From the NCBI GenBank assembly GCA_051382295.1, contig JBBCAW010000012.1:161983-225982 (forward strand): 64,000 nucleotides of DNA, read 5' to 3'. Below are positions 13,952-44,758 of this stretch, one piece after another. Origin of the DNA: Bdellovibrionota bacterium FG-1 (GTDB taxonomy: Bacteria > Bdellovibrionota > UBA1018). The notes beneath the pieces were generated by a model, which saw nothing but the letters and a program-made list of their open reading frames with translations, searched no databases and was not told the DNA's origin. Position 1 is the first letter of the stretch. Each line of letters opens with the position of its first letter. A program made the position numbers and the translations under genes.

Positions 13952-14430
13952 GTTCTGCGCAGGACGGGCGATCGCTGGCGCCGCGCCTTTACGGGCTGCA
14001 GTGCGGGAGGAAAGTCCGGGCTCCATTAAGCAAGGTACTGGCTAACGGCCAGGCAGGGGATTCGCGAGGATCTCTGGACGGAAAGTGCAACAGAAAACAA
14101 ACCGCCCAGATTATTGGAGTTTACTTCGATGAACTGGGTAAGGGCGAAACGGTGGGGTAAGAGCCCACCGCACCTTTGGTGACAAAGGTGGCACGGCAAA
14201 CCCTACCTGGAGCAAGGTCAAATAGGGGGGCGTTTCCCTCTCGCTGCGACGGTGAGCATAGCTCGCTGGCGCGGCAAAAAGAGGGGACAAGGTCGGCTCG
14301 ACCGATGCCTCCGGGTAAGACCGCTTGAACGCCGCAGTAATGCGGAGTCTAGAGGAATGGTCGCCTCCAACCGAGGAGCGAAAGTTTTTCGGTTGAAGAC
14401 AGAACCCGGCTTACAGTCCTGTGCAGGAAT
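13952..14430 (+). ncRNA. rnpB: RNase P RNA (type A)
   Basis: GAGGAAAGTCCGGGCTC, AGTGCAACAGAAA, GGTAAGAGC, GAGCAAG, ACAGAACCCGGCTTA; P1 TTCTGCGCAGGAC pairs with GTCCTGTGCAGGAA. Confidence 0.97.
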
Positions 14431-36761: not shown

Positions 36762-37001
36762 GGTCGGAGCAGAGACTTCAGTTTCTTGTTTTGTTTTTTT
36801 GTGATTGTTTTTGCTGAATGCGCCCTGTATACGCTTTGTTCTTCAAATTGTTTGGGTGCCTCCTTAAAATGGGGCTTTTATTGAACTGACGCTTTGGGAG
36901 AGATTGCTTGGCCGAGTTCACATTGCGGCTGAGGTAACTCCCCGAAAAAACAGGAGAATTATTTAAAATAATTCTCCTTACGTAACTGAGGAGATGTGAA
37001 A

Positions 37002-37313
37002 ATGGCAATAGAACACAAGATTCGCATTAAGTTAAAAGCTTTTGATCATCACGTTCTCGATCAATCTGTTTGGGAAATCGTGAATACGGCGAAAAGGACT
37101 GGGGCGACAGTTCGTGGACCGATTCCTCTTCCAACCGTGATTAATAAGTATTGCGTTCTACGTTCTCCGCATGTAGATAAGAAATCCCGCGAACAGTTCG
37201 AAGTTCGGACTCATAAGCGGCTTTTAGATATCCTCGAACCGACTCAGCAAACTGTCGACTCTTTGATGAAGCTCGATTTGTCTGCCGGGGTGGACGTGGA
37301 GATCAAGTCCTAA
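37002..37313 (+). CDS. rpsJ: 30S ribosomal protein S10
   Basis: [31 protein letters not shown]. Confidence 0.99.
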
Positions 37314-37570
37314 CCATCTCCCAACGATGGCGGTGGACTTAGCCGATATAGTGTTCATTTATTGTGAATGTTGTATAGGTGGCCTTGAGGAGCGATTCGA
37401 TACTATCTGCTGCAGCGTGATTTTACGTTCCCAGTGGGAAAGTCGAAAAGCTTAGCGACCGGCACATGAAAGCATCCGGCGGCCTAGAATCCGATTTCTC
37501 AGGTGGCTTCCCGGTGATGCTGTGAAGACGGTTCGTCAGATTGAAAAGTAAGAGGCGAAAAATTTCGCCT
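37305..37570 (+). ncRNA. Candidate structured RNA in the rpsJ-rplC spacer
   Basis: Hand-folded helices cover most of the ~270-nt spacer; no family recognised. Confidence 0.45.
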
Positions 37571-37582
37571 TTGGAGAGTAAA

Positions 37583-38338
37583 ATGGAACAGAAGCCTGAG
37601 GCACAAAAGGCAAACGCGGCTGAAACCGTGGCGTCTAGTGCTGCAATTAAAACAGTTCGCGAGCTAGTGGCCTTGGCTACTAAGCGGGGCGGCGTCTTAG
37701 GGGTTAAGGCGGGGATGACCCAGGTTTATGCGGAAAACGGCGATGCTTTGGCTGTTACCGTGATCGATTTAAAGCCGGCGGTAATTACCCAAATTAAGAC
37801 CAAAGATAATGATGGGTATCAAGCCGTTCAAGTTGGTTTTCTGGAGAAAAAGGCTAAGGCTGCAACTAAACCGGAACAGGGACATGCAAAGGCAGTTGGT
37901 GCGCCTGGTTTTTATCATTATCAAGAATTTCGTTTTGGGGCCGGTGAGCAGCTTTCTGGTTTGACCGTCGGCAAGGTCCTTTCTGCGGATTTTGTTAAAC
38001 CAGGGGATCTGGTTGACGTGACTGCTGAAAGCAAGGGCAAGGGTTTTCAGGGTGTCATTAAACGGTATCATTTCGCCGGTGGTTTTAAGACCCATGGTGC
38101 ATCGCTGGTTCATCGCTCACTTGGATCTATCGGTAATCGTGCTGATCCAGGTCGCGTATTTCCTGGTAAAAAGATGGCCGGTAACATGGGTCATGAACAG
38201 GTGACTGTTCAGAACGTCAGGGTGGTTGCTGTAGACGTCGAGAATCAGCTCCTCCTGGTGCATGGAAGTGTTCCAGGTCCTCGCAGTGGCATCGTGACTG
38301 TTCAAAAAGCGGTCAAGACTGCGAATAAGGTGAGGTGA
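37583..38338 (+). CDS. rplC: 50S ribosomal protein L3 (N-terminal extension)
   Basis: LGVKAGMTQ, DGYQAVQ, SKGKGFQGVIKR, KKMAG. Confidence 0.98.
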   Translation: MEQKPEAQKANAAETVASSAAIKTVRELVALATKRGGVLGVKAGMTQVYAENGDALAVTVIDLKPAVITQIKTKDNDGYQAVQVGFLEKKAKAATKPEQGHAKAVGAPGFYHYQEFRFGAGEQLSGLTVGKVLSADFVKPGDLVDVTAESKGKGFQGVIKRYHFAGGFKTHGASLVHRSLGSIGNRADPGRVFPGKKMAGNMGHEQVTVQNVRVVAVDVENQLLLVHGSVPGPRSGIVTVQKAVKTANKVR

Positions 38339-40124: not shown

Positions 40125-40454
40125 GTGGCACGTTCAATTAAAAAAGGCCCTTTTTGTGACGACCATCTGCTGAAGAAGGCTCAGGCTGCCCGCCAGAGTC
40201 AGAGTCGTCAGGTGATCAAGACCTGGTCGCGCCGTTCTACGGTGTTGCCGGACTTTGTGGGTTTAACGTTTGCTGTTCATAACGGCAAAAAGTTTATCCC
40301 AGTTTACGTGACCGAAAATATGGTTGGGCACAAGTTGGGTGAATTTGCCCTGACTCGTACCTTTCATGGTCATACCCCTGCCGATAAAAAGGCTGCTGCT
40401 GAGGGTGCTGCAAAACCTGCGGCAGCTGCTCCGGCTAAACCGGCAGCTAAGTGA
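40125..40454 (+). CDS. rpsS: 30S ribosomal protein S19
   Basis: [24 protein letters not shown]. Confidence 0.99.
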
Positions 40455-42243: not shown

Positions 42244-42609
42244 ATGGCTACTCAGAAAAAGACAAAAGAAGCTTCAAAATCGGTTGCGGAAGCTCCGATT
42301 CGTACTGAAGCCGCGGATTCAGTCGATTCACGTAATGCGCTCCAAAAGCGTCGCGTGGCCACTGGAATTGTGGTGAGCGATAAGATGCAGAAGACGATCG
42401 TTGTGAAGGTGGATCGGCGTGTTCGCGATACGATGTATAAAAAGTACGTCGTTCGGTCTCGTCGCTTTAAGGCTCATGACGAAACAAATGACGCCAAGAT
42501 GGGTGACCGGGTTACGCTGGTTGAATCCCGGCCGCTCAGTCGCGATAAGCGTTGGGTTTTACAATCGGTTGTCCGTCGCGCAGGTCAGACGCAGGACGTA
42601 AACGTTTAA
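42244..42609 (+). CDS. rpsQ: 30S ribosomal protein S17
   Basis: GIVVSDKMQKTIVV, ESRPLSRDKRW. Confidence 0.98.
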   Translation: MATQKKTKEASKSVAEAPIRTEAADSVDSRNALQKRRVATGIVVSDKMQKTIVVKVDRRVRDTMYKKYVVRSRRFKAHDETNDAKMGDRVTLVESRPLSRDKRWVLQSVVRRAGQTQDVNV

Positions 42610-43409: not shown

Positions 43410-44138
43410 GTGGTAGCCAATAAAGACGAAAACCAAAATCAGGCAGCCGATGGCGCTGATGCAGCTAAGGCCAGAACAGACGCTAAAAAGGCATCTGCTG
43501 AGGCGGCCCGTGCCAGAGCGAAAAAGGCCAAAGAAGATGCAGCCGCATCTTCGGTGAGGATCGCTGCCTCAGGGGAAACTAGGATTTCTCCAAGTAAGAC
43601 GCCTCGCTTACAGGTGCATTATAAGGGCAAAGCAGTGCCCGCTTTGATGAAAGAGTTCCAATACAAAAATCCGATGCAAGTTCCGCGGCTGACCAAAGTC
43701 ACGGTTAATTGCGCGGTTAAAGAAGCGGTAGCTAACCCTAAGGTTCTCGACAATACTTTTGAAGAGATTCTTGCTATTACGGGACAGAAGCCTGTGGTAA
43801 CTCGGGCACGTAAGGCAATCGCTACCTTTAAGGTTCGTAAAGGAAATGCAGTCGGCGTTATGGTAACATTGCGTCGCGCTCGCATGTATGAGTTTTTGGA
43901 CCGCCTGATGAATGTCGCGCTTCCTCGTGTTCGTGACTTCAAGGGTGTGAACCCCAAATCATTCGATGGTCGCGGTAATTACTCTCTGGGGATCCGCGAA
44001 CAGATTATTTTCCCGGAAATTAATTACGACAAGGTGGACAAGGTGCGCGGAATGACCGTGACGATCGAGACCACTGCACAAACGAACGAGCACGCTAGAG
44101 CTTTACTAACTGAGCTCGGCATGCCCTTCCGTAAGTAA
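43410..44138 (+). CDS. rplE: 50S ribosomal protein L5 (long N-terminal extension)
   Basis: [30 protein letters not shown]. Confidence 0.98.
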
Positions 44139-44359: not shown

Positions 44360-44758
44360 ATGAGCATGACTGATCCGATTGCAGATCTGTTAACCAGAAT
44401 CAGAAACGCCGCCAAAGAAAAGCATGAAAAGCTTGAAGTGCCGGCGTCTAGGATGAAGGCGAACGTTGTTCGTGTGTTAAAGGATGAAGGTTATATTAAG
44501 AACTTTCGTCTGATGCGCGAAGAAGGGCGCCCTATGATTAAGGTGTATCTCAAGTACACCGACGAAGGTATGAGTGTCATCCAGGGAATTCGCCGAATAA
44601 GCAAACCTGGCTTGCGACGTTATGCCGGTTATGAAGCCATGCCCCGTCCACTGGGCGGCGCAGGTATAGCCATCGTTTCGACCTCCAAAGGTGTAACGAC
44701 AGGCCATAAGGCTCGCGCCCAAAAAATGGGTGGCGAAATTCTTTGCGAGGTCTGGTGA
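44360..44758 (+). CDS. rpsH: 30S ribosomal protein S8
   Basis: DPIADLLTRIRNA, SKPGLR, STSKG. Confidence 0.99.
   Translation: MSMTDPIADLLTRIRNAAKEKHEKLEVPASRMKANVVRVLKDEGYIKNFRLMREEGRPMIKVYLKYTDEGMSVIQGIRRISKPGLRRYAGYEAMPRPLGGAGIAIVSTSKGVTTGHKARAQKMGGEILCEVW

Follow-up and report, generated by a model that had tools for sequence, protein, structure and literature searches.

A conserved two-hairpin RNA between rpsJ and rplC in Bdellovibrionota: a candidate internal ribosomal leader with a copy of the S8 site

In Escherichia coli, ribosomal protein S8 exerts its repression from inside the spc operon (PMC3616713, PMC10931766), and its site in helix 21 of 16S rRNA has been reduced to a small set of determinants, i.e., A595-(A596-U644), (G597-C643)-U641 and the invariant A642 (PMC4176348). 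Table S1 of a survey published in 2020 lists S8 leaders only in Gammaproteobacteria and gives them no Rfam accession, and its Tables 1 and S1 contain neither a leader for L3 nor a motif from the lineage considered here (PMC7247131). In the passages of a 2024 review that deal with the matter, the regulation of spc or S10-spc clusters outside the Gammaproteobacteria is stated to be unknown (PMC10931766). A literature search, drawn mostly from sources other than subscription journals, found no description of the element reported below.

The window, i.e., the whole stretch of 64,000 nucleotides from Bdellovibrionota bacterium FG-1 that was analysed (contig JBBCAW010000012.1), carries the str-S10-spc cluster. 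An initial annotation had pointed to a structured spacer of ~270 nt between rpsJ and rplC that no ORF accounts for, and both statements hold: the spacer measures 269 nt (rpsJ stop at 37313, rplC start at 37583; Table 1), and the only ORF of at least 60 aa reaching into it is rplC itself, extended upstream in frame from 37541. Neither a tRNA or tmRNA, nor a sigma-70 promoter, nor a terminator on the + strand was found in the window spacer, and a comparison with Rfam 15 gave nothing at the gathering score and a single chance match (E 7.6) in a search up to E 10. Several other features of the window were noted. A promoter-like site, a hairpin resembling a terminator and, near the rpsJ Shine-Dalgarno sequence, a 12-bp hairpin lie in the preceding gap between fusA and rpsJ (36762-37001), which spans 240 nt and lacks a tuf gene. 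Ala/Lys-rich extensions are present at the N-termini of L3, L5 and S17 (37583-37690, 43410-43600 and 42244-42330) and at the C-terminus of S19 (40370-40454), that of L3 recurring throughout the order. Compared with the 367-position model, the class A RNase P RNA (13956-14429; 474 nt) carries several long insertions.

Table 1. Positions of the genes, hairpins and hairpin parts in the window (P, pair probability; z, folding score against shuffled sequence).
Feature	Position	Strand	Evidence
rpsJ (S10), upstream gene outside the leader	37002..37313	+	Pfam Ribosomal_S10 E 1.5e-37, ORF list
Hairpin across the rpsJ stop, CCCAAC-type loop, outside the conserved core	37305..37340	+	P 0.66-0.86
G-U-rich hairpin of 12-13 bp, lineage-specific	37342..37380	+	In MFE, without counterpart in alignment A1
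HP-A: lower stem, S8-like loop, 7-bp upper helix, N/CC internal loop, variable cap	37390..37453	+	Covariation; z -2.58
5' strand of S8-like core, GA-U-ACU, equivalent to 16S 638-644	37398..37404	+	Comparison with 16S h21
3' strand of S8-like core, AAGUC, equivalent to 16S 595-600	37440..37445	+	59 script-called cores
HP-B: hairpin, invariant core, variable cap	37458..37532	+	Covariation; z only -0.88 in this genome
HP-B CAUG/UGUG	37465-68/37521-24	+	
HP-B bulge	37469-71	+	
HP-B GCAU/AUGC	37472-75/37517-20	+	
HP-B CCGG/CCGG	37476-79/37511-14	+	
HP-B UG bulge	37515-16	+	
A-rich single-stranded linker	37538..37552	+	A-run directly behind HP-B in 37/66 spacers, no control
HP-C, small hairpin abutting the rplC Shine-Dalgarno	37553..37570	+	P 0.74-1.0, z -3.79
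rplC Shine-Dalgarno GGAGAG	37573..37578	+	Sequence
rplC (L3), first gene behind the leader, candidate HP-B ligand	37583..38338	+	Pfam Ribosomal_L3
rpsH (S8), candidate HP-A ligand, same uninterrupted gene cluster	44360..44758	+	Pfam Ribosomal_S8

Taken as a whole, the region folds only modestly better than shuffled sequence on the + strand (z -1.99, with 7 of 200 shuffles as good), the value for the minus strand being -1.02. Several helices drawn by hand in the initial annotation reappear in the computed ensemble, namely AAGTCC/GGACTT (P 0.66-0.85), CCATC/GATGG (P 0.86), GCGTG/TACGT (P 0.82-1.0) and AGGCGAA/TTCGCCT (P 0.74-1.0), as does a 12-bp helix (37346-37376) in the minimum free energy structure, while GACG/CGTC is a minor pairing (P 0.17). 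The multibranch fold proposed for the central part had to be abandoned, with near-zero pair probabilities for its long closing stem (37381-37508, P at most 0.003) and for the inner hairpins TTCCC/GGGAA (P 0.001), GTCG/CGAC (P 0) and CCGG..ATG/CAT..CCGG (P at most 0.016); the bases assigned to them are the same ones that the covarying hairpins HP-A and HP-B use. The two hairpins at the 5' side (37305-37380) fold well (z -3.45), yet they are not conserved in relatives. A CCCAAC-type loop like that of the window hairpin at 37314-37330, just after the rpsJ stop, was seen with a loose pattern at a similarly early position in 11 of 79 spacers. Next to rplC, 34 of 60 spacers have a helix beside the Shine-Dalgarno sequence, where shuffling would lead one to expect 22.7, and the A-rich linker might possibly serve as a ribosome standby site.

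The comparison with relatives showed that the spacer is a real, conserved structured RNA with two covarying hairpins. Among 30 loci picked by S10 alone, 23 matched the pattern for block A and 24 that for block B; one further locus (L017) has block A with a long cap, and another (L030) a diverged block B. Covariance models, counting the genomes on which they were trained, recovered HP-A in 66 and HP-B in 77 of the 116 genomes of the order, in one copy per genome with one duplicate aside, at rpsJ-rplC in the inspected loci, and neither model matched any of 34 rplC loci from other phyla. In 79 distinct complete spacers of the order, a set partly chosen by model matches so that the shares are inflated, a strict script called HP-A in 59 and inspection by eye added 5, whereas HP-B was found in 69; only HP-A is present in 4, only HP-B in about 9, and neither in 6. 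The two cores are separated by 20-28 nt in 52 of 59 cases. A covarying structure lying consistently upstream of ribosomal protein genes, by which PMC7247131 recognizes ribosomal leaders, is thus what the order displays. In 12 spacers the element begins no more than 12 nt downstream of the rpsJ stop codon, where an intergenic promoter would find no room, so that it likely belongs to the rpsJ transcript; an origin at a promoter inside rpsJ is conceivable. A metagenome scan with a loose pattern matched at least 120 stretches; 80 of these were inspected, and neither rpsJ nor rplC adjoined any of them, the pattern being too loose to define the range of the element. Two lineages differ in their layout. 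The spacer of family f10 (L029, L289-L291) carries another conserved hairpin instead of HP-A and HP-B, which makes it a third candidate leader, and in genus g17 (L071, L072) HP-A comes behind a hairpin unit repeated in tandem, HP-B being lost or degraded.

HP-A reproduces a known protein-binding site. In an alignment of 23 sequences (A2), changes on both sides were seen in 20 of 25 pairs, a count inflated by kinship among the sequences, and 84% of cells are paired, compared with 30-48% for slid partners (0 of 500 shuffles). The core, GA(U/A)ACU paired to AAGUC, matches the S8 site of 16S helix 21: it keeps A595-(A596-U644), G597-C643 with base 641, A642 and U598-A640, and the flanking helices are present. 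Because alignment A2 was selected by the block-A pattern, an invariant core is built into it; when positions 595, 596, 641 and 644 were left free, A595, A596 and U644 were still found in 58 of 59 cores, the 59th being a mis-call, and position 641 was U (35) or A (24) only. An apparent change of the leader L071 to the U/U/G triple of rRNA was discarded as a mis-call in an upstream repeat. Letter by letter, the core is identical to 16S helix 21 of families f9, f2, f20 and f19 (4 loci), where f1 denotes the family of the source genome and the other numbers further families of the phylum. The 16S rRNA of the source family itself carries U595, U596 and G644 (5 loci, including L031 of this genome), as does that of f11 (1 locus). 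The leader keeps the phylum's commoner A, A, U form and has not followed the change in its own rRNA, and no co-variation between leader and own 16S was observed, which speaks against the S8 reading.

The protein that would recognize this site is encoded downstream, and the S8 of the window retains the RNA-binding residues Y88, S107-T108-S109 and E126. The S10 and spc genes run on in 21 regions, with rpsQ-rplN gaps of -4 to 75 nt (two negative values are frame artefacts) and of 30 nt in the window, a spacing from which co-transcription of rpsH with the leader is inferred. No S8-type hairpin was found at the start of rplE in these 21 regions, three weak matches lying inside coding sequence. The two core pairs of HP-A have a P of only 0.05 in the nearest-neighbour model, and the comparative fold lies 4.9 kcal/mol above the minimum; the low values are attributed to a loop that is held by base triples. 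It is very probable that S8 binds HP-A.

The second hairpin, HP-B, is built on a core made of a tandem U·G/G·U, an N-A-N bulge, GCAU/AUGC, a UG bulge and a C-G pair. The alignment for HP-B (A3, 21 sequences) showed changes on both sides in 13 of 23 pairs with 89% paired, a count to which the same reservation on kinship applies, and an alignment across classes in 5 of 12; the four GCAU/AUGC pairs are invariant and thus provide no proof by covariation, but the pairs on either side of them covary. In f20, a family from another class of the phylum, HP-B occurs alone in 19 of 20 spacers, and in 13 of the 14 that were chosen by S10 alone. There it ends 12-14 nt before the rplC ATG (19 of 20 spacers), and the two leading bases of the GGAGG Shine-Dalgarno sequence are paired within it. 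This minimal form, a hairpin of 40 nt overlapping the Shine-Dalgarno, would be easy to assay. The exact HP-B pattern was present in 87 of 100 f20 genomes, most of these positions being known from the pattern alone, and a reversed control gave 3 matches in all 401 genomes; outside f20, two of the five matches that were checked lie at rpsJ-rplC. In one genome (G322) HP-B follows the rpsJ stop by 9 nt. It was not found in the fetched spacers of f13, f18, f19, f21-f24, f26 and f27, which are short.

A pointer to the ligand came from families in which rplC has left the S10 operon (f14-f17 and f25; loci L295-L311, L346, L349-L357) and rpsJ is followed directly by rplD. Several of the relocated copies lie beside genes that, from their translations only, resemble RluA-type pseudouridine synthases or rRNA methyltransferases. 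In f15, L3 alone among 19 S10/spc proteins was found in all 18 rplC loci, and in 16 of them the stand-alone gene is preceded by a conserved hairpin with a CA/UGAUG core and a UG bulge, the two loci without it lying within 130 nt of a contig end. An alignment of 13 sequences supports this hairpin by covariation in 4 of 7 pairs, with 98% paired, and Rfam gave nothing for the two of its loci that were compared; its sequence, CCAGU...AUGAUGG (L349, L350, L425-L440), lies just upstream of rplC, often behind a TTGAC-type promoter. It is a candidate L3 leader in its own right. A descriptor shared by HP-B and the f15 hairpin, written by hand after both motifs had been seen, matched 46 of 20000 random windows and none of the control loci (0/7, 0/25 and 0/34). 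Relative to HP-B, one pair differs (G·A for U-A) and the NAN bulge is missing, the HP-B model R2 did not detect the f15 hairpin even with filters off, and neither HP-B nor the core was found before relocated rplC in f14, f16, f17 and f25 (7 loci). If HP-B and the f15 hairpin form one family, the placement before a lone rplC, read with the rule for single-gene leaders in PMC7247131, would make L3 the ligand.

The ligand of HP-B is probably a ribosomal protein of some kind, and the chances that it is L3, to which the similar hairpin before the relocated f15 rplC points, are about even. Examination by word matches and by eye of the H97 loop, the H95/H96 stack, the H94 bulge, H20 and 16S h34 gave no convincing rRNA counterpart of HP-B, and its likeness to the L3 sites of 23S rRNA is only partial, to H94 and H95/H96. 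An unlikely but not negligible reading keeps the same leader and lets HP-B bind L4, L14, L6 or a non-ribosomal factor, the f15 hairpin being unrelated. It draws on the preference in PMC7247131 for ligands known from other leaders (L4, S8) in multi-gene operons, on the tandem G·U and bulged A, which recall the H95/H96 stack, and on the common HP-B 5' strand, which is a 10-mer of the H97 loop. The 10-mer match has, however, by our own estimate a chance expectation of roughly 0.1-0.2, in 42 of 88 copies the bulge has letters other than those of H97, H96 of the source lineage disagrees with two of the four pairs that never vary in HP-B, and the core shared with the f15 hairpin has a low background.

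The reading favored here, to which somewhat better than even chances are given, is that the two hairpins form an internal two-input ribosomal leader that lowers translation, with S8 acting on HP-A and probably L3 on HP-B. Surplus S8 would bind HP-A as a copy of its helix-21 site, surplus L3 would probably bind HP-B, and either event would lower the translation of rplC, upon which the fused S10-spc genes behind it would fall by coupling, with rpsJ outside the regulation. S10 has a second role as NusE, and the sparing of rpsJ may, speculatively, relate to it. In the source genome, 62 nt separate the end of HP-B from the rplC start codon, so that repression would be indirect, e.g., by a blocked hand-over of ribosomes from rpsJ or, alternatively, by blocked access to the A-rich linker ahead of the hairpin adjacent to the Shine-Dalgarno; on paper, the rplC Shine-Dalgarno could pair with the CC that is invariant in HP-A or with the UUCC bulge of HP-B. 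The initial annotation had inferred an internal autoregulatory RNA on the + strand that mimics rRNA bound by L3/L4 or similar. Conservation, covariation and position bear out a ribosomal-leader RNA with rRNA mimicry, and what fell was the secondary structure of the middle. The two other options named in the annotation, a processing site and an embedded ncRNA, gained no support. The clear mimicry is that of the S8 site, which had not been named; L3 is plausible for the second hairpin only, and nothing pointed toward L4.

The output is likely to be translational rather than transcriptional. That the hairpins bind ribosomal proteins and act through transcription termination (Rho-dependent or intrinsic) or mRNA decay is improbable: the distance of HP-B from the rplC ATG in the order of this genome (29-249 nt, median 68) would suit such a route, but terminator-like tails on the + strand, of which the window spacer has none, occur in only 5 of 66 spacers of relatives, and HP-B overlaps the Shine-Dalgarno in f20. 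Marginally less probable again is an element for RNA processing or stability, or a small RNA released from the operon transcript, without a role in feedback. Long irregular hairpins at the fixed spacing described above could suit a nuclease or an autonomous fold, but the invariant bases reproduce the known binding site of a protein encoded downstream, the two hairpins also occur separately, and HP-B covers the Shine-Dalgarno in f20. The remaining reading, of DNA-level inverted repeats (transcription-factor sites, as the GCATC/GATGC arms would allow) or neutral insertions, is largely refuted: G·U pairing, bulges confined to one strand, compensatory changes, single-copy position and caps whose length varies from a few to more than 100 nt all favor RNA.

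A bolder version of the two-input leader is offered tentatively, as having rather less than even chances: that it senses S8 and L3 to balance a fused S10-spc superoperon, and that in HP-B we have the first mRNA regulator to bind L3, a module of ancient origin in the Bdellovibrionota that accompanied rplC on its departure from the operon. If so, sensors placed next to each other, one for either ribosomal subunit, could link the synthesis of the two, and HP-B would be the first leader for L3. For one phylum, this would also give a testable answer as to how the fused cluster is controlled, with an S8 site that moved to its head.

Among the described systems, HP-A is close to the S8 operator of the gammaproteobacterial spc operon, with a helix-21 core in a long hairpin inside the operon and rpsH downstream, whereas the operator overlaps the start codon of rplE and HP-A is non-coding and lies before rplC (PMC3616713, PMC10931766). 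Unlike the E. coli operator, HP-A has its core some 180 nt away from the start codon, here that of rplC, and it differs further in its extra conserved N/CC loop, in the second hairpin joined to it and in the phylum. The leader would work like an S8 operator, yet by position it is not a member of the gammaproteobacterial family. With the S8 site of 16S helix 21 (PMC4176348) it shares the core determinants in a permuted strand order. The S10-operon leaders of E. coli (an L4-interacting RNA) and of Firmicutes are likewise structured RNAs heading the S10 cluster, but they lie upstream of rpsJ and the present element downstream of it, the E. coli leader uses an intrinsic terminator that has no counterpart on the + strand of the spacer, and neither likeness to the L4 site nor an Rfam match to the S10 leaders was found in the spacer. 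The candidate L4-Archaeoglobi and L2-Alphaproteobacteria leaders tabulated in PMC7247131 are also situated inside or ahead of the S10 cluster, one of them directly before rplC, but they belong to other domains or phyla, and no Rfam entry matched the spacer or the minimal HP-B loci. HP-B can be regarded as an undescribed candidate leader, possibly for L3.
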